A stretch of DNA of 64,000 nucleotides, from the IMG/VR virus record IMGVR_UViG_3300050142_000050, positions 128,001-192,000 of that record; one strand, given 5' to 3'. Each line of letters begins with the position of its first letter. Positions within the stretch are counted from its first letter, which is position 1. Both the position numbers and the translations under genes were made by a program. This document shows positions 4,145 through 43,252 of the stretch, piece after piece. The notes under the pieces were generated by a model that saw only the letters and a list, made by a program, of their open reading frames with translations, searched no databases and was not told where the DNA came from. This DNA is from a virus. Lineage: Duplodnaviria; Caudoviricetes.

Positions 4145-4555
4145 TCACGATATGATTTTGCAGAGGTAGCCGGCAGATGCCAACAGAGCGACCACGTTCT
4201 CGATATTCCCATCGGGGATATCGACTTTGATAGTCTTGGAGACACCTTCGGTGATGACCGAGAGGCTACCGGCCGTGATCCACTCGTTGGCGAAGATCCG
4301 CGTCACGGGATTCTCAGCACCATTGTCGATCTCGACCATGAAGTAAGTGAGCTCAGTGACATCAGAAGTCACCGTAGCATCCACCTGACGCACCGCGTTG
4401 TTGTACGGGATGGGATTGGACAAGAACGCCTTATACCCACGATAGGAACCGCGTGAGAGGAGGGTGCCTACCCATACAGTCTCATCACTCAGGTTCTTGG
4501 AGCGGAAGCGAATCTTGTCCCCGATGTCGACATCATTGATTGTCAGGTTTGGCAT
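4145..4555 (-). CDS. Conserved phiKZ-like hypothetical protein (136 aa, beta-rich)
   Basis: SD GAGGA. Overlaps the chaperonin stop. Ends at a hairpin between convergent genes. Confidence 0.65.
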   Translation of the reverse strand: MPNLTINDVDIGDKIRFRSKNLSDETVWVGTLLSRGSYRGYKAFLSNPIPYNNAVRQVDATVTSDVTELTYFMVEIDNGAENPVTRIFANEWITAGSLSVITEGVSKTIKVDIPDGNIENVVALLASAGYLCKIIS

Positions 4556-6404
4556 CTCGGTTCCTCATGTCGATGATCTGACCAGTATTGGCCAACTTCG
4601 GAAGGATGTCCTTGAACCGACGGAACTGCTCATCATAACCGATGAAAGCTTGGATGAGAGCATGCTCGCCATCACAGTCCAGAAACCCTTTCATAACATC
4701 GGGATTGGCCAGATCGCCCTTCTGGATGACGGCTTCATCATCCTTGAGGCGACTGATGCGATAGACGAACTTACTGAAGCTATCTGTGGTCAGAGGGAGA
4801 GGTGCTCGAGTAGCAGCCATCAGGATCTCGACCAAGGTGGTCTGGAGATCGTGAATGACATGCGTCGGATCACTCTTCTCGACACGACCATTGATGATAC
4901 CCAGCATGTGATCATAGCCCGAAAGCACGAAGCCATCGAAGACTGCGCTGGTAGCCGCTGTGATGGCATCCTGGAACACGGTCAGGTTCGAGGCCTGCTC
5001 ATGCCGGGTATCGCCCAGTGTGATCTCATAGAGCTTCTGCGTCGTCGTATGACGATAAAGATCGGTAAGGTGTGCCAGATCTTCGGGATCCAGTGGAGGA
5101 TTGACCGGATCGTTCTGACACTTCTGGATGGTATCGAGCATCTCATCGACCACCGCATTGTAGAAAGGATGATCGGGAGAATTCAAGAAAGGATGGTTAC
5201 TCCCACCATCACGATGGTAGAGACCACTCAGTTCGACAGTGCCACCATGTTGGAACACACTCACACCACCATCGAGACCGATCAGGAGATCACTCGCGGA
5301 CTGCGTGAAGTTACGCTCGAACTTACCAGCACCGGCCACGGCCTTGATGGCTGATACCACCGAGTAGAGAAGACGAGGACGAGCGTGGAACTGGATGCGG
5401 ATGATCCGACCACCCTTCGTCTGCTGATTGTAGGTGTCGATGACCTGATTGAGACGCGATGATTGGAACGAAGGTGCCAAGATCACCAGATCTCGCGTCA
5501 ATCCTTCATTGAGCTTCTTCCAAGGTGTCATACCACCCAGATCCTGCATGGTAGCTGGATCATCACCGACGATGAGTTCGGTGAGGAAGAGCTCTTCCAG
5601 AGAGCTGTCAGCGATCACCTGCTCAGCCATATATAGGACGCAATCTTCCGACAGCATCTGTGTACCAGACTGGTGATTGAGGTCATAGTGAGATTCACAA
5701 CGACCTTCCAGGATGAAGTCGTAAGGGACCTGCTTCAGGATGAAGGGGTCAGAGATCTCAGTGGTCTCAGGACGCACCTTGAAGACTCGTCCACCCTTCT
5801 CAGGGAGACTGGACACCACGGTAGCGATCTTCTCGGACAGATCGCGGTTACCCTTCGAGCTGACCATGGCCATATTCCAGGCCACTGCATACTTGATGTC
5901 CTCACGGGAGTATTCACCCGCCAGATCCATCGTACCGATCAATTCCTCCAGATCATCGATCGTGATCTTGGTCTTCTCGAATTCCTGCCAAATGGACTTG
6001 AGCGTTTCAGCCAGTTGGATGGAACGAGCGATATTCTTAGTACCGATGATGTTCTCATCGAGACCATTGAGGATGTGGCGCATGCTCAGTGCCAGGAACA
6101 ACATCGATGTCGTGGTACCATCACCACAGCGCTGATCCACTGCATGGCCCACGAAGCGGCACATACGCGACAGACTGCGCTCCACCGGACATTCGGATGA
6201 GTAGAGCGATGTCAGGATGCGGATACCATCCTTGGTGAATTCCTCGACATCATTGTTCTGACGATATTTCGAGGAGATCAGGGCACTTGCCGCATAAGGA
6301 CCAGTGTGCAACTTGAGGATGTCGATGATCCCATCGAGTACCTTGACGCCCTTGGTCTTGAGATCTGCGATCGAAGACTGATTGTAATAGATTTTATCCG
6401 ACAT
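4533..6404 (-). CDS. groEL: Diverged GroEL-like chaperonin (623 aa)
   Basis: TKDG, CGDGTTTS nucleotide-binding motif and QDAITAATSAVFDGFVLSG. Start moved to ATG 6404 with SD GAGGA. Confidence 0.8.
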   Translation of the reverse strand: MSDKIYYNQSSIADLKTKGVKVLDGIIDILKLHTGPYAASALISSKYRQNNDVEEFTKDGIRILTSLYSSECPVERSLSRMCRFVGHAVDQRCGDGTTTSMLFLALSMRHILNGLDENIIGTKNIARSIQLAETLKSIWQEFEKTKITIDDLEELIGTMDLAGEYSREDIKYAVAWNMAMVSSKGNRDLSEKIATVVSSLPEKGGRVFKVRPETTEISDPFILKQVPYDFILEGRCESHYDLNHQSGTQMLSEDCVLYMAEQVIADSSLEELFLTELIVGDDPATMQDLGGMTPWKKLNEGLTRDLVILAPSFQSSRLNQVIDTYNQQTKGGRIIRIQFHARPRLLYSVVSAIKAVAGAGKFERNFTQSASDLLIGLDGGVSVFQHGGTVELSGLYHRDGGSNHPFLNSPDHPFYNAVVDEMLDTIQKCQNDPVNPPLDPEDLAHLTDLYRHTTTQKLYEITLGDTRHEQASNLTVFQDAITAATSAVFDGFVLSGYDHMLGIINGRVEKSDPTHVIHDLQTTLVEILMAATRAPLPLTTDSFSKFVYRISRLKDDEAVIQKGDLANPDVMKGFLDCDGEHALIQAFIGYDEQFRRFKDILPKLANTGQIIDMRNRDAKPDNQ

Positions 6405-6433
6405 AAGTCCTCTTTTGAAAATTGAGCTGGGGG

Positions 6434-6838
6434 TCAAATGCCCCCAGCTCGTAAACTCATCATTTCTTTGACGAGGAGCATGATTGTTTCATTAAGCTCC
6501 CCTTCTTTCCTCTTGGGCATCACCTTAGCTCGATCGTAGAGCTTTACCCATTCGTCATGCGGCATGTGGTGGTACACATCGGATACAGTGACACCGAACA
6601 CACTCTCGATCGGGTGTGACTCGAATGCCTCACAGATCTGGGTGAACAGATCTTTCCGTCTTAGATGAGCAGCTGTAGGCTCAAAGAAGCCTAGCATCTT
6701 TTCCAATGGGTTTGTGACGCCTTCAGGATAGATTCCCAAGATGCGAGCATTCATATCCTTACGGAAGAAGTCCCACTGGAAGTTCTCAGCTATACGGTTG
6801 GGGTCAGATACCCCTCGGTACGACTGAGACCTTCTCAT
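6434..6838 (-). CDS. Putative tail-assembly chaperone extension (gpT/P2 gpE'-like). May be made as a -1 frameshift fusion with the upstream gene
   Basis: Frame is open back through the T7 run at 6913-6919. Segment SVFGVTVSDVYHHMPHDEWVKLYDRA resembles gpT-like small domains. First in-frame ATG past the overlap is 6838. Confidence 0.55.
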   Translation of the reverse strand: MRRSQSYRGVSDPNRIAENFQWDFFRKDMNARILGIYPEGVTNPLEKMLGFFEPTAAHLRRKDLFTQICEAFESHPIESVFGVTVSDVYHHMPHDEWVKLYDRAKVMPKRKEGELNETIMLLVKEMMSLRAGGI

Positions 6839-6879
6839 CTCGTCATAAGTGTTCCACCACTCTTTCTCGGTATCAGCAT

Positions 6880-8439
6880 TTACCTCTTTCGAGAATACTG
6901 TACCGCTGCGGTAAAAAAAGCGGAGAACGGATCGAATGTCAGGAGGCCAGAGGGAGTGTCCTCGGAGTGACCGCACTTGGGGCAGGCCATCGAGGGATAA
7001 CCGACATAGGTGATCTGACACTTGTCGACATACTCGCGCATCCTGTTGCGCACTTCATCGCCGTAGCGGTCATCCGCCTCGAGGAGTGCGTATGCGACAG
7101 CTTCACGAGTATCGACCGAGATCCAGCGCGGAGGCTGTTGCTCACCACGGATGACCTCTTCGACCTTCTTCTCAGCCTTCTTCACCCAGGGACCATAAGC
7201 CCGAATGGCTCGCAGGTTGATCAGAGTGTTGAGCGCAGCTGCGTTGTCACCACGGACTTCCTGGACCACCTGAGTGAGGAAAGATTCACCATCCTCCAGA
7301 TGCTCGCGTACGGAAGGTACACGCATCGTGAAGCGATGATTGCCAATCTCGATGACTTCTCCATCGAAGGGATACTTCTTCTGAGCATCGAGAATCTCAG
7401 ATGAGGTATGCTTCTTCGACGAGAAGTGAGCACCCGACATGAACGTGATGACCTCAGGAGGAATCGCCGTATGACGAGTCAGGATCATCTTGCGCAGATC
7501 GGCCTTCAGTGAATGAACGTGATCGCACGCTGGGATATCCTTCTCAGGATCACCCCGATTCGTACACGGAATACGCCAACCATCATAACCGTTGGGCCAC
7601 ATCGCATCGGCCATCGCCATGTAGAGATGTGCCAAATCCGGCATACGAATCGTGCTCAGCAGTAGCTCACGTTGGTTGGCCTGATTGAAGCTCGATGCGA
7701 CGATCTTGTCCAGGATCCAACGTACGCCGATCTCACGACCGAAGAAGCTATTGTAGAAGTGGTAGTAGAGACCATCTTCATTGGCGAACGTGCGCTCCTC
7801 ATTGGCCAGATTGATGACCAATGCATCCGACTCAGAAGGCACTGGGACACGGATGTCCACAGTCATCGCCGAGTTCCATAGAGGCACACGACGGACGACT
7901 CCCTTCTCATGGAGCATCCATGCGGTCAGTGCATCTTCAGCAGCCGGCTGATAGATACCCTGCTCAGAGAAGCGAGACACCAGATCCTGGATACCGATGT
8001 TGCGGCCATCCGACGACACTCGACTCGTGGGAGCGGCTTCGCCATCGGCCTTGATCTTGTTCAGGAAGTCTCGCTGACGTCCTTCCTCAGCACTCTCGTC
8101 ATCGATCGCCTGAGCGATGATGTTCTCGTGACTACCCGTCACCAGGACACGTGCGGCGACAGTCTCGGGTGACGTACGCGCCGCTGCTATATCCAGGATG
8201 TTGGCCAGAGTCTCAACAGAGACATTGGTGAGTACGATGACAGACGGATCGTAGGCGGAAGTACTGCGAGATTGTTCAGTGATCTCCTCTTCAGGTTCTT
8301 CCTCCTTCTTTTCAACAGGAGAAGTACCCAGGTCGAGCTCTTCGTCATCGACATACCCAGGAGTGGGTTCCGGCGCAGGAGTAGCGCTGACATTCAGAGC
8401 ATCCTGCTCTTCAGGAATGCCCTCTTCATTTACGTTCAT
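6880..8439 (-). CDS. Baseplate hub / tail assembly chaperone-like protein (519 aa)
   Basis: Start at 8439 overlaps the upstream stop (ATGA). Acidic N-terminus, Cys motifs (CTNRG...CDH, CPKCGH) and a C-terminal FF as in T4 gp26/gp51-like proteins. Confidence 0.55.
   Translation of the reverse strand: MNVNEEGIPEEQDALNVSATPAPEPTPGYVDDEELDLGTSPVEKKEEEPEEEITEQSRSTSAYDPSVIVLTNVSVETLANILDIAAARTSPETVAARVLVTGSHENIIAQAIDDESAEEGRQRDFLNKIKADGEAAPTSRVSSDGRNIGIQDLVSRFSEQGIYQPAAEDALTAWMLHEKGVVRRVPLWNSAMTVDIRVPVPSESDALVINLANEERTFANEDGLYYHFYNSFFGREIGVRWILDKIVASSFNQANQRELLLSTIRMPDLAHLYMAMADAMWPNGYDGWRIPCTNRGDPEKDIPACDHVHSLKADLRKMILTRHTAIPPEVITFMSGAHFSSKKHTSSEILDAQKKYPFDGEVIEIGNHRFTMRVPSVREHLEDGESFLTQVVQEVRGDNAAALNTLINLRAIRAYGPWVKKAEKKVEEVIRGEQQPPRWISVDTREAVAYALLEADDRYGDEVRNRMREYVDKCQITYVGYPSMACPKCGHSEDTPSGLLTFDPFSAFFTAAVQYSRKR
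6913..6919 (-). other. Candidate -1 programmed frameshift slippery site U UUU UUU
   Basis: Minus strand reads GCT TTT TTT ACC in the upstream frame. A -1 slip gives TTT TTT TAC CGC, in frame with the downstream ORF. Confidence 0.55.
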
Positions 8440-9329
8440 TCCATCTGATCCTTTTTCATAGGAGCTATATAAACAGCATTGGGACGCAGGAGTATCATGC
8501 TCCATCCCTCACCGATGACTCGGTGTAATAACCGATAGGCACTACCGCTATCGTGGACGACGAGTAGTTCTTCACGGATGACGGGATGGGGTAACTTCTC
8601 CATGTCCTTGGTGTAGATGGTGTCCACACCTCTTGTTAATCTGGGAGAGCATGTGAAGGAATCATCCTCTGCGAATTTGACTTCGACAGGGATAGTGTTC
8701 TCTTCATCATTGTGTTTGAGAGCCATCACCTTATCAGTTTCACGAGGCTCGAGATAGGGGCGATACATAGCGCACCATGCTCTCACCATCTGAAAGTGAT
8801 AGAGACTATCGATAGCTAGTGAGTAGCGAGTGATGACCTCTCTTCCCACTTTGTTAAACTTCCGAGTATAAGCGCCACCGTATTTGTCAGTGATGACTTC
8901 ATCCTCGAAACTCTCACCTTTAGTCTTACCCAAGGCAGAGATCTGATCACGGATGTTCACGACGAGAGACTGCTCCTCATCATGACTCATGCCGTATATC
9001 TTACTCATGTACTTGTCGACTGTTTCCTGCAAGACAGGATCTGTGATTTTGATCATAGCGATCGTGTGGTCAGAAGCTCCATAGGTGAAGCTCTCCTCCG
9101 GTGATGATGACATGAAGTATAGATCATGATCAGCACCTAGATTACGAAGGATGTAAGGGATACGTCGCTGCGTGGTGCGCTGGAAGATAGTGCGGAAGAT
9201 ATCGAAGTCATCACGCTTGGGGACTTTAGGTTCCTTAGGAGTGGTAGACTTCTTCTTTTTGGAGGAGACGACAGGGGTCTCACTGATGAGTTCTTCCATC
9301 GGTCGAAATGCCTTTGTATGAATGTCCAA
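8436..9329 (-). CDS. Hypothetical protein (about 297 aa, start uncertain)
   Basis: Long ORF with a Lys-rich N-terminus. Stop overlaps the next start. Confidence 0.65.
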   Translation of the reverse strand: MDIHTKAFRPMEELISETPVVSSKKKKSTTPKEPKVPKRDDFDIFRTIFQRTTQRRIPYILRNLGADHDLYFMSSSPEESFTYGASDHTIAMIKITDPVLQETVDKYMSKIYGMSHDEEQSLVVNIRDQISALGKTKGESFEDEVITDKYGGAYTRKFNKVGREVITRYSLAIDSLYHFQMVRAWCAMYRPYLEPRETDKVMALKHNDEENTIPVEVKFAEDDSFTCSPRLTRGVDTIYTKDMEKLPHPVIREELLVVHDSGSAYRLLHRVIGEGWSMILLRPNAVYIAPMKKDQME

Positions 9330-39541: not shown

Positions 39542-40594
39542 ATGGGACGCGACAATTTATTCAAAACACTGAACGTGTCATCGATCCTGCACGAGGACTC
39601 GATCACCCGTTTGCTTACATTTTTGATGACCAATCGTGGAGCGATTCTCCCTACCCAGAAGAAAAGCGAGCTCTTTCGAACCCGCTTTTCAGGAAGTTCT
39701 CCGATCGCCGATCTGGTACAATCCATCGCTGCATCAGGGAAGGACAAAACCTACTCCCTCCTCAGACTGCCCACCAAGATGAACAGTCTTCCTGAGTGTA
39801 TCGACATGACGTTCATCACGATGGATGTGATGCAGATGAAGAGTGCACTCAAGAACCCTCCTTCGTCGTCATTGGTTGCGTTCCCAGAGATCAACGATCG
39901 GGTGATCGTCAACATCTCCGACCTCACCAAGGCAAACGGAGATTTCTCCGATGTGAGCCAGTTCCATGGTCGCATCGTGAAGGATTTTCTGTCTCGGAGC
40001 TACTACAATTCGAGCTCTCCGACGTGGATTTCTCCCACATTCGTGCGCCATGTCGCCAAGGTCTATAGTATGACCGTAGCCGCTGGCCTAGCAGGTCAGT
40101 TTAAGACTACGCCTGTGACTGAGAACCTGATCAAGATCATCTTGTCCTTGTTCTATGTCGGGAAGATGACATCTCCCGCGACCGCAGTGTCGTTTGTGAA
40201 AGCCAATGCACGAGATCTGGGTCTGTATGACATCTACGATCTCGATCAAATCGCGGCGCTTTCGAAGGAAGTTTTGGGTACTCCTATCCCCACAAATATT
40301 GTCGATGTGACACGGCTCATCGCGGCTCTGGATATATCCGAGATCGGTGGATCAGAGCATCCTCACATCGATGTACCCATCATGAACCGCAAGTTCATGA
40401 CCATCTTCAGTGACAGCAATGTGTCGCGCATTGCGCTTGAGTACCCTCCGTATTTTGCCTACATCCTTCTGTCGGTGGCTTCGGGTATCCGCTGCGGACT
40501 TAGCTTCTCTATGGCTAAGTTCAAGCTCGATTCTGAAAACCGAAAGGTGATGCAGGAATTGGTCCGTAACCCTGCGGTCTTGTCCGGATTGTAA
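39542..40594 (+). CDS. Virion structural protein (phiKZ gp28-like by position)
   Basis: Divergent from the sheath gene, first of the gp28-27-26-like block. Confidence 0.55.
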   Translation: MGRDNLFKTLNVSSILHEDSITRLLTFLMTNRGAILPTQKKSELFRTRFSGSSPIADLVQSIAASGKDKTYSLLRLPTKMNSLPECIDMTFITMDVMQMKSALKNPPSSSLVAFPEINDRVIVNISDLTKANGDFSDVSQFHGRIVKDFLSRSYYNSSSPTWISPTFVRHVAKVYSMTVAAGLAGQFKTTPVTENLIKIILSLFYVGKMTSPATAVSFVKANARDLGLYDIYDLDQIAALSKEVLGTPIPTNIVDVTRLIAALDISEIGGSEHPHIDVPIMNRKFMTIFSDSNVSRIALEYPPYFAYILLSVASGIRCGLSFSMAKFKLDSENRKVMQELVRNPAVLSGL

Positions 40595-40606
40595 AGGATC
40601 CTCCCC

Positions 40607-43252
40607 ATGAAATTACCGTCGACTCCCTCGGCTAGTCTGGCATCCTATCTGAACCAGCTTTACTTCGGTAAAACCTGGAACTCACCGGATGACCACGGAC
40701 GTGTCAATTTCGGGATCGACAAAGCCGCTAAGAGGGTCAAGATCGGTACGGTGACGATTGATCGGTCCGAGGTGGGTCTTCCCACCTCGGGCACGGTCTA
40801 TGCTGTCTATCGATCCCCCGCTACACGCTTTGGTCGATTCATCAAACTTCCGCACCGCACCTGGGTCAATGCCAATGACATCCTGAATGACACAGGTGTC
40901 AGGTTCGATATCTACAGTGCGAGTGGGCATCCTCTCCCGATGGGAGCCATTTGGCTCTTGTATAACAAGATCACAGACGTGGTCGTGATCGCAGTGGAGA
41001 CCACCTCTACACGTAAGTGTACAGGTGAGACTTATCCATCGCTTTATATCACTGTCAATTTTGACACGAGCAGAGCCTCTCCGGTGGAGAAGAGCTACCT
41101 GAAGGTGTCTACTACCCTGGGATCGGTGACTACACCTACAATCGTCTCTCAGGCGATTTTAGAGGCATTCGATCAGCACCCTCATGGTACTACAGTCCTG
41201 GTGAACGGTATCGTCTACCTGGCTCGTGTCCATGTGCCTATTCTGGTACATGGAGATGTGGTCGAGATCACCTCCGATCCCGATGTGGTGGGATATACTG
41301 ATATCGATGTGGACAGTGACGTCACGGGATACTACTCCGAGTTGTATGGAGAGTATCGTGAGATTCTCCATATCCCCAAGAGCCTCAATCCCAACAATGT
41401 GATCATCACCAATGACACAGTCGACTTTGTGGTCTATGACCCATCGACACATCGTGGGCTCTACGGGATCCGTATCGATGAACATGCGATCGAGTCGATC
41501 ACGCACAATGACTTCTCGATCCCTCGGACTCTATTGGCAGCATTGCGTCAGTCCCTAGGGTCACTATCTGTGAAGATCCGTGTATATGTGCGCTTCCCCA
41601 CGAAGCCTCTGACGCTCACCAGTGATGTGAATAACCTGAGTGACCTCTATGGTTTCTCGGATGAGAAGATCATGGGTCATCTGACAGCTTCTATCCCTGA
41701 GGGTATCTCGGAGTGGAAAGCTCAGAATCTGGAAGTCTCTCCCTTCCTTGACTTGCTCTATTCCGCCAATGTCGCTTCAGCTGAGACCGTGGTCAATAAG
41801 TTCGAGGCAGCAGTCGGCTTCTTCGATATCGCATCGACTATCGGTGATGCTCGCAGGTCTTACGTCTATGGAGGTGGTCCTACCACTGTCCGTAAACCAG
41901 CACGCCTCTATGGTTACCGTTGTGATGTGATCATGTATGCCGAAGGTATCAAGATCCGCGACGACTATGTGGCAGTAAGTGACATCGACTCTGAGCATTT
42001 CTCAGTCAGTGTCTTGGAGGGAGTCACACTACCCACCACTGCGAAGATCGACCTCTATGTCTTCGAGTATGGGCTGAGGACACCTACCACATTCGTCCCC
42101 TCTCCATCTAATCATACCCTGGTGATGGACAGTGATGATTACACTGTGGTTAAGAAGATCCAGTATTCGTCTCCTCGTAATGTCCTTAAGGGTACTGCGA
42201 CTGACGGATTTGTTGCGATCGCTGCATCGTCTTCAGACTACACAGTCACTGCGAATACTGATGGTACCTACACCTATCTGTGGAAGGGTATCCATTACGA
42301 CTCGACCTTCCATCTCATCCCCAAGTATGGTCTGCGTACGCAGATCCTCACGATCGATGATGAGTTGGCTGACAGTCAGTCCTTGGTGTTCGATCTCAAG
42401 AAAGTGACATCTGACTCCAATGTGCTCATCCCATCCATGTATTACAATACAGCTGAGGTCTACATCAATGGACACCGTCTCGTGGAGAATGTCGATTACT
42501 CCATCGTGCACGAATATGGTGCACAAAGTGACATCCTCTCCACACTCCTCATGATCTCCAATGCTGAGTACATCTCTCTGACTTCGTCGAATAATATCGT
42601 CGAGGTAGTGTTCCACGGAGATACAGTGGGATCATTCGACTCCGGCTACGTCATCGACAATAAGTTGACTCGTAAGTCTACCCCAGCATTCTGGGAGAAG
42701 CAGTGCAGTCGTATCTTCGTCGATGGTAAACTCACCGACGGTTTCACCGAAGTGGGTAATACGCTCGAGTCGGAGAGTGATCTTCGCGATGGGGGTCTTT
42801 TCATGATCGAGTGGAATATGCCCTATTCTGCTCTCAAACTCCTGAAGAGTACCTCCTCATCTGATGATCGGTCACTCAAGGCCAAGATCGACATCCTCTT
42901 AGGTCTCGTACAACAAGTCTACCCTGATACGACTGTCATCGATCACGTGTATAAGCTCTATAGTCCTTTCCTGGCACAGGTAGGCTATGACGTGATGAAG
43001 GGTAACCTCACTATCGTGAATGAACCCTCGACAGATGCATTCTTGCGTCAGTTTGCAAAGTACAAGATCCTAGTGGACAATGATCCTGTGTTAGGAGCAT
43101 CCAACACAGCAGTCGACCGTAGGTTCGTGGATATCAATGCCCACTATACCAACATCTCGACTGAGGATCCCACCGATATGCTCAGTATCCAACGACTCGA
43201 TAGTCTGGTACTGACTCCGTCCGCTATCTCGATCAGAGAGGTCCTGCTATGA
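40607..43252 (+). CDS. Large virion/baseplate protein (phiKZ gp27-like)
   Basis: 881 aa. KLYSPF near the C-terminus. Stop overlaps the next start. Confidence 0.6.
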   Translation: MKLPSTPSASLASYLNQLYFGKTWNSPDDHGRVNFGIDKAAKRVKIGTVTIDRSEVGLPTSGTVYAVYRSPATRFGRFIKLPHRTWVNANDILNDTGVRFDIYSASGHPLPMGAIWLLYNKITDVVVIAVETTSTRKCTGETYPSLYITVNFDTSRASPVEKSYLKVSTTLGSVTTPTIVSQAILEAFDQHPHGTTVLVNGIVYLARVHVPILVHGDVVEITSDPDVVGYTDIDVDSDVTGYYSELYGEYREILHIPKSLNPNNVIITNDTVDFVVYDPSTHRGLYGIRIDEHAIESITHNDFSIPRTLLAALRQSLGSLSVKIRVYVRFPTKPLTLTSDVNNLSDLYGFSDEKIMGHLTASIPEGISEWKAQNLEVSPFLDLLYSANVASAETVVNKFEAAVGFFDIASTIGDARRSYVYGGGPTTVRKPARLYGYRCDVIMYAEGIKIRDDYVAVSDIDSEHFSVSVLEGVTLPTTAKIDLYVFEYGLRTPTTFVPSPSNHTLVMDSDDYTVVKKIQYSSPRNVLKGTATDGFVAIAASSSDYTVTANTDGTYTYLWKGIHYDSTFHLIPKYGLRTQILTIDDELADSQSLVFDLKKVTSDSNVLIPSMYYNTAEVYINGHRLVENVDYSIVHEYGAQSDILSTLLMISNAEYISLTSSNNIVEVVFHGDTVGSFDSGYVIDNKLTRKSTPAFWEKQCSRIFVDGKLTDGFTEVGNTLESESDLRDGGLFMIEWNMPYSALKLLKSTSSSDDRSLKAKIDILLGLVQQVYPDTTVIDHVYKLYSPFLAQVGYDVMKGNLTIVNEPSTDAFLRQFAKYKILVDNDPVLGASNTAVDRRFVDINAHYTNISTEDPTDMLSIQRLDSLVLTPSAISIREVLL

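Follow-up and report, generated by a model that had tools for sequence, protein, structure and literature searches.

The present analysis deals with a 64-kb stretch (hereafter, the window) taken from an IMG/VR virus record of 249.6 kb that derives from leaf-litter metagenomes (IMGVR_UViG_3300050142_000050), and more precisely with two reading frames of its minus strand that a programmed -1 frameshift would join. The first of them, gene A (8439-6880, minus), encodes 519 amino acids (aa) from ATG 8439, the same start as in the Joint Genome Institute (JGI) call, to TAA 6882-6880, with the C-terminal sequence FDPFSAFFTAAVQYSRKR. Ten sense codons ahead of this TAA, the codons GCU UUU UUU ACC contain a correctly phased slippery heptamer, U_UUU_UUU (6919-6913, minus), placed on a conserved Phe-Phe pair. 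The -1 frame is open on the same strand from 7021 to 6434, and a slip at the heptamer would lead into an extension of 159 codons plus stop (6434-6913, minus), whose reading starts as YRSGTVFSK... and which would form the C-terminal part of a 668-aa transframe product (509+159). The lower part of this extension corresponds to gene B (6434-6838, minus), which the gene-finder and JGI calls start at ATG 6838 to give 134 aa. A 15-pair stem-loop capped by a GAAA loop (6905-6868, minus), a candidate frameshift stimulator, encloses the stop codon of gene A, and a mini-ORF (open reading frame, ORF) of 14 codons in the third frame (6879-6835, minus), predicted from the sequence only, extends from TAAATG to an ATGA over ATG 6838. 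An initial annotation of the window had already described the phased heptamer, the 159 open codons with a fusion of about 668 aa and the mini-ORF, all of them present as described, whereas two of its distances have to be corrected: the heptamer is indeed near the stop, but at ten sense codons and not nine, and the stem-loop exists, but is longer than described and starts 7 nucleotides (nt) downstream instead of 12.

Homopolymer runs are error-prone in some sequencing chemistries, and a true run of eight Ts would convert the locus into one 668-aa gene; decay into a frameshifted pseudogene would be a related explanation. The choice between seven and eight Ts, also raised in the initial annotation, falls at the contig level on the side of seven in all independent assemblies: the exact T7 run with identical flanks occurs at 5 loci that come from different JGI samples, the site is covered with no inserted or deleted letter in four more sets of assembled Logan contigs from other samples, and the 134-aa downstream product is recorded on 24-33 contigs; the sequencing runs listed for the stretch include none of RNA. 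Moreover, finished genomes of cultured phages (phiKZ, 201phi2-1, SPN3US, RSL2, pTD1 and others) need the same -1 shift in the same place, and the 0-frame tail that follows the Phe-Phe pair (T-A-A...) aligns with the 0-frame tails of the relatives, all of which makes an artefact or a decayed gene barely credible.

The heptamer also stands out from the rest of the genome. T7 is found just twice in the window. The 231 ORFs of the 250-kb genome contain 94 in-phase X_XXY_YYZ sites, from which this one clearly departs by a -1 frame that continues 149 codons beyond the 0-frame stop (42 in the runner-up). In this genome UUC accounts for 80% of the Phe codons and UUU-UUU for only 4 of 140 Phe-Phe pairs, so that the U-run is kept against the codon bias. 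Two strain variants (L005 and L006) show 25 differences with respect to the window, all but one in the N-terminal acidic disordered region of gene A (window 8020-8495), the folded part of gene A and gene B being invariant; such variants are therefore uninformative about the slip site. Outside the window, four other in-phase heptamers lie at 0-4 codons from a stop (A_AAA_AAA, C_CCA_AAU, C_CCA_AAA and G_GGG_GGG), with -1 extensions of 30-46 codons, at positions 7440-8024 (-), 39938-41263 (+), 72086-72343 (-) and 199787-200530 (-) of the genome (G000:C1).

Gene A matches phrog_4585 (E 2.4e-39, residues 206-536 of a 541-aa ORF), one of the two labels, together with phrog_8054, of the phiKZ gp77 homologs, and the genome holds a single copy of a gp77-family gene (one match, E 1.3e-40). 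Through phage DT01, the gp77 family can be followed into 237 phage records; phiKZ gp77 is among its members, and so is 201phi2-1 gp136, whose record describes it as 'similar to phiKZ gp77 and EL gp47'. These matches identify gene A as the single ortholog of phiKZ gp77, 201phi2-1 gp136 and EL gp47. Searches with tblastn relate it to phiKZ-like jumbo phages at 20-25% identity, a word-indexed protein search (also with a profile) retrieved nothing beyond a strain variant at 98% and a single relative at 25%, and megablast of the locus against the phage collection gave no close DNA relative. Neither the IMG/VR scans with the window protein and with the LucasX protein, nor Pfam (E <= 0.1, window protein and five relatives), NCBIfam (E <= 1) and PDB sequence searches, provided a match for gene A. 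The protein is composed of an acidic, disordered N-terminal region of about 166 residues and a folded part (around 170-519) with a zinc ribbon (CPKCGH), and finishes with the C-terminal motif ...FDPFSAFF. SPN3US gp47 was rejected as a member of the family, as it is a different, head-associated gene, and the mentions of 'gp77' in the literature refer to the numbering of phages other than phiKZ.

The conservation of the slip site and of the frame relation was followed in the window plus 25 other sequences, which represent about 20 distinct jumbo-phage lineages at 15-25% identity and were read as a first set of 17 cultured lineages (LucasX, DT01, SPN3US, Noxifer, pEa_SNUABM_54, PCH45, pTD1, Eowyn, phiKZ, 201phi2-1, Ea35-70, AgentSmith, RSL2, Aeromonas D3, Yong XC31, Kc263 and KPN8) and a second set of IMG/VR loci (L024-L038). 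A small ORF lies 3' of the gp77 homolog in the -1 frame in all 18 lineages of the first set, and likewise in the second. The apparent gaps between both genes vary from -4 to 236 nt, all of them congruent to 2 mod 3, and in every case no stop interrupts the -1 frame between the U-run and the end of the small ORF, giving extensions of 154-175 codons. Despite this near-constant length, the small genes have been annotated at sizes between 69 and 153 aa, with starts that are a mix of ATG, GTG, TTG and even CTG.

At the slip site itself, an in-frame UUU UUN lies on the same conserved Phe-Phe or Phe-Leu in 26/26 sequences. The first codon is always UUU, and the second one is UUU (14 sequences), UUC (9), UUA (2) or UUG (1), which means that a Leu at this position is coded by UUA or UUG and never by CUN. 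In 22 of the 26, the codon ahead of this pair ends in U, over eight different amino acids (A, I, V, T, S, Y, N and G), and in the other four it ends in G; the strict in-phase X_XXY_YYZ heptamer is thus found in 22/26. A negative control is provided by T4 gp26 (gene 26, L039 7803-8429), which ends in CPECGKTHAHVIRGLKEFFELL and, in its C-terminal ...CPECG...FFEL, has the same zinc-ribbon and FF motif as the gp77 family: its FF codons are UUC UUU and its -1 frame is closed at once, with no -1 ORF, so the U-run of the gp77 family is no mere consequence of the Phe-Phe pair. The occurrence of heptamer and frame overlap in homologous gene pairs, which the initial annotation had proposed to check, has therefore been found throughout, with the strict form of the heptamer in most of the sequences. 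To judge from this comparison, the site is conserved together with its frame relation and transframe coding beyond what the amino acids require, and the nucleotides of the U-run are under selection. A further recurrent feature is the sequence ACCCUA (or AUCCUA) directly 3' of the U-run (L002, L011, L014, L017, L023 and others), which appears in many lineages with a protein identity of only about 20%; read in frame 0 it gives Thr-Leu, and in frame -1, Tyr-Pro, and it could reflect a dual-coding constraint or have a role in slippage.

The -1 frame also evolves like coding sequence ahead of the candidate starts. In phiKZ, the -1 ORF opens 6 codons before the U-run and has no ATG, GTG or TTG until residue 86 of the 165 of the extension, and the first such codon appears at residue 88 in AgentSmith, 59 in pEa54, 52 in PCH45, 66 in D3, 69 in Ea35-70 and 61 in Kc263. 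Conserved -1-frame motifs, GHVxxxxFG (residues ~20-40) and EAYDxxYGI (~60-80), lie upstream of those starts. Within the pTD1 group (six sequences, 60-100% identity), the stretch after the stop of gene A and before the latest candidate start shows 132/115/259 substitutions at the first, second and third codon positions of the -1 frame, a coding pattern that the remainder of the extension repeats (565/416/1003); in the 201phi2-1 group, the post-stop stretch before the last candidate start gives 13/11/32. On these counts, the apparently intergenic linker is evolving with coding periodicity, and over much of the family the -1 ORF cannot be read as a gene of its own. A joined coding sequence is marked at this place in none of the 17 annotated GenBank regions that were read, and a description of recoding in the gp77 family was not found in the searchable literature on jumbo phages, Chimalliviridae and phiKZ.

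These comparative data bear directly on a second explanation for the window, that of two ordinary genes, in which the 134-aa product would be made only from ATG 6838, perhaps coupled through the mini-ORF, and the heptamer would be a by-product of the Phe-Phe pair. ATG 6838 does exist and is chosen by all gene callers, the TAAATG...ATGA arrangement is in place, and gene B of the window is barely recognisable as a family extension. However, ATG 6838 has no Shine-Dalgarno (SD) sequence at a workable distance, the neighbouring genes having GAGGA or AGAGGA, and the UUU UUU codons plus the wobble U run contrary to the codon bias of the genome. Moreover, the same ORF in the relatives has no start ahead of conserved, coding-type sequence, the 159 codons of the window fall inside the family range, and the stem-loop is found at the right spacing, which together leave two ordinary genes as quite an unlikely explanation. 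A relay of ribosomes through the mini-ORF had also been offered as an alternative in the initial annotation: the required sequence is there, but it is specific to the window, and several relatives lack a start codon before the conserved -1-frame motifs, so the relay is not the mechanism of the family. In any case, a start at ATG 6838, whether or not the mini-ORF takes part, may act as an additional route in the window.

The extension of the window was also searched on its own. No promoter- or terminator-like pattern was seen between gene A and gene B, and no Rfam family in 6400-7200. The 159-aa extension, compared with 1.84 billion representatives, matched only the 134-aa protein of the window itself, whereas gene B gave no match by tblastn against the phage collection, by BLASTP against three positional counterparts or in a PHROG scan at relaxed E (the family extensions correspond to phrog_12109, phrog_7580 and phrog_13274). 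Its own model reached a predicted local distance difference test score (pLDDT) of 0.41, with no meaningful neighbour in the ESM Atlas. A profile-profile comparison with hhalign, on the other hand, aligned residues 60-151 of the extension colinearly with the 24-sequence family profile (score 20.4, E 0.01, a weak to modest signal) around a core GI..NP ... FG.s..e....P; none of 200 shuffles reached 20.4 (mean 10.9, sd 1.9). We take the extension of the window as a very divergent member of the extension family. The best match of the genome to the hidden Markov model (HMM) of the gp77 extension is a different sequence, a 505-aa ORF outside the window (G000:C1, ~23.8-25.3 kb, +), through the segment IYETEFGSID...HDDPEK...ESFMDYMRE (E 0.0014, or 0.02 after the alignment was corrected); this ORF and the extension may have a small helical module in common, or the match may be due to chance.

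Taken together, the conserved U-run, the constant frame relation and the coding -1 frame strongly support a programmed -1 frameshift from which phiKZ-like phages would obtain two products, one short and one long. The most likely pathway would start with the translation of gene A, where most ribosomes would stop at TAA 6882-6880 and release the 519-aa protein. A fraction of them would slip back one base with two tRNA-Phe on the UUU UUU of the U_UUU_UUU at 6919-6913, through either tandem or A-site slippage, and the stem-loop located 7 nt downstream (-16.2 kcal/mol, z -3.5, with 0/200 shuffles as stable) would probably stimulate the slip in this phage. The slipped ribosomes would then read 159 codons of the -1 frame up to 6434 and produce the 668-aa protein, which would retain the disordered N-terminal region, the folded core and the zinc ribbon of the short form and add a mainly helical C-terminal domain, the one annotated as gene B. 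The same recoding would operate across the Chimalliviridae, including phiKZ, in which gp77 and 'PHIKZ076.4', annotated 218 nt apart, would give products of about 533 and 687 aa; the transframe junction would read ...TFF-YFGG... in phiKZ and ...SAFF-YRSGTVFSK in the phage of the window. As a whole, this explanation (a gp77-family copy with a ribosomal -1 slip and products of 519 and 668 aa, conserved across the Chimalliviridae) is regarded here as probable. The two-product strategy that the initial annotation had extended to phiKZ-like phages is thus backed, as far as -1 recoding is concerned, by comparative evidence, but its attribution to the lambda G/GT type stands only as an analogy.

Slippage during transcription, the main rival of the ribosomal reading, would lead to the same 668-aa fusion, if the phage RNA polymerase stuttered on the T7 run (5-8 T in the relatives) and added one U. 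It would agree with a conserved element that is a homopolymer run, with its wobble-extended length under selection, and with the lack of a conserved strong RNA structure downstream; phiKZ-like phages, moreover, use their own multisubunit RNA polymerases. However, the runs are short, with 5-7 T in many lineages, and known cases of bacterial transcriptional slippage, such as Thermus dnaX and Shigella mxiE, use around nine or more. The exact X_XXY_YYZ in most of the family, with U_UUU_UUA and U_UUU_UUG as classical ribosomal slip sites, and the stable stem-loop of the window at the canonical 7-nt spacing also argue against a stuttering polymerase, which we consider unlikely. The slip is most likely ribosomal rather than transcriptional, and we infer both this ribosomal nature and the efficiency of the process.

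Several observations weigh against a ribosomal frameshift shared by the window and the whole family. A strong downstream structure is not family-wide, as z falls below -2 in only 3/18 lineages (70-nt fold). The conserved Phe-Phe pair fixes the phase of the U-run, so phase alone cannot separate ribosomal from transcriptional slippage. Four sequences have G at the first position of the heptamer, among them Noxifer with only G_UUU_UUC, which implies that the rule of P-site re-pairing is relaxed. With respect to the window, an HMM of 24 family extensions scores its extension at just 0.6 bits, only the profile-profile comparison, with its modest signal, links this extension to the family, and ATG 6838, unlike the situation in phiKZ, would permit independent initiation of the 134-aa product.

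The proposed recoding resembles that of lambda gpG/gpGT, and also those of P2 (E/E+E') and Mu, in which a shift to the -1 frame shortly before the first ORF ends gives a short and a C-terminally extended product. As with these chaperones, the second ORF would have no independent initiation, and the arrangement is kept despite the divergence of the sequences. However, no relation of sequence or fold with lambda G/T or P2 E/E' was found in Pfam, NCBIfam, PDB sequence, BFVD and PDB fold searches; neither part of the locus matches G, T or E/E', and the gpT/P2 gpE'-like segment that the initial annotation had recognised in the downstream ORF did not appear in any of these searches. Nor does the locus lie between tail tube and tape-measure genes, as it does in phages of the lambda type, but between a DNA polymerase and a GroEL-like gene. 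The first ORF is also longer in the gp77 family (~520-650 aa versus ~100-140), and the slip site is a U-run on a conserved Phe-Phe instead of G_GGA_AAG or similar. Given this lack of detectable homology and a gene A fold that is like that of T4 gp26/gp51, the G/GT analogy is functional only, and the homology to the lambda type drawn in the initial annotation is not supported. The mechanics are also comparable to those of Escherichia coli dnaX (tau/gamma) and of the IS3-family orfA-orfB, where an in-phase heptamer, a stem-loop 6-8 nt downstream and a shared N-terminus are found. In dnaX, the slip shortens the protein at an A_AAA_AAG preceded by an SD-like element, whereas in the window the slip would lengthen it at a U_UUU_UUN with no evident upstream SD-like element.

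Regarding the function of the locus, gene A was modelled with AlphaFold (AF2) from 15 sequences (predicted template modelling score 0.61), with residues 1-166 disordered and 170-519 at a pLDDT of ~80. In BFVD, this model recovers the gp77 family first (E 1e-18 to 1e-8), and rows 19-43 of the result are T4-like models of 225-310 aa annotated as 'baseplate hub assembly protein / chaperone / hub subunit' (E 5e-5 to 6e-2, probability 0.95-1.0, template modelling score by target 0.45-0.60). The C-terminal CPxCG...FFxL of gene A aligns by hhalign with the very end of T4 gp26 (E 0.0017, 23 columns), with which it shares the zinc ribbon and the FF motif. Foldseek searches of the model gave no PDB match at E <= 0.001 and none below E 0.05 in the Swiss-Prot AFDB, and VIA-align against the PDB gave only short helical matches (Z at most 5.7). 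Gene A is probably a distant relative of T4 gp26/gp51 (PF12322, T4_baseplate), which has no frameshift, according to the modelled fold, but it is twice as long, carries the acidic disordered N-terminus of ~166 residues and has no PF12322 match. The label of tail/baseplate assembly gene given in the initial annotation thereby receives moderate support from the hub-assembly folds and the gp26 motif, although Pfam and NCBIfam add no match. In the extension of the phiKZ type, the model shows a disordered linker of ~46 residues followed by a helical C-terminal part with pLDDT ~90. The BFVD matches of this model are confined to 'small ORFs' from other jumbo phages, with gpT, E' and gp51 absent from them; PDB matches had Z at most 4.3, and the extension family showed no likeness to T4 gp51 or gp26 when aligned by hhalign (E 0.39 and 0.38, respectively).

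From the fold likeness of gene A to T4 gp26/gp51, the two forms could act like a chaperone pair in the assembly of the baseplate hub. Unlike the records of their neighbours, those of phiKZ gp77 and 201phi2-1 gp136 make no mention of the virion or of mass spectrometry, in agreement with an assembly factor that is not structural, as a chaperone would be. Two data call for caution about this role: a gp77 homolog has been reported among the early-expressed proteins of phage Churi (PMC11849849), and the gp77-family gene sits among replication and transcription genes.

Programmed frameshifts conserved throughout a virus family are rare, and usually mark a step that is sensitive to the ratio of two products, as in lambda G/GT, dnaX or retroviral gag-pol. 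That all Chimalliviridae, phiKZ included, depend on an unannotated -1 frameshift which fixes the ratio between the short and long forms of a gp26/gp51-like assembly factor seems somewhat better than an even bet. If true, the strategy of lambda G/GT would have been independently invented on an unrelated chaperone, with the extension domain as an adaptor to a partner, and more than 200 deposited genomes would mis-annotate this extension as a separate small gene with an arbitrary ATG, GTG, TTG or CTG start. The records that were read do annotate two separate genes, often with implausible start codons, and recognising the frameshift would put right the annotation in the 237 phage records with a gp77-family gene and define a new long form of ~670-690 aa for structural and genetic work. 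The site lies in a core gene of the phiKZ-like nucleus-forming phages, which are models of phage cell biology and candidates for therapy, and phiKZ gp77 itself offers a directly testable case of the frameshift hypothesis. The window alone has a smaller value, as one more, very divergent member that would confirm the rule.

Finally, the locus is accompanied in the window by a gene for a 287-aa protein with no known function, a divergent DNA polymerase and a GroEL-like chaperonin, whereas RNA polymerase subunits and helicases are the neighbours of the gp77 homologs in the relatives. The GroEL-like gene, directly downstream of the frameshift locus (4533-6437, minus; 623-634 aa) and with no adjoining GroES-like gene, is very divergent: it gives a weak Pfam match to Cpn60_TCP1 (20 bits, below the cutoff) and matches phrog_5725 'chaperonin groEL' with an E of 6e-12.

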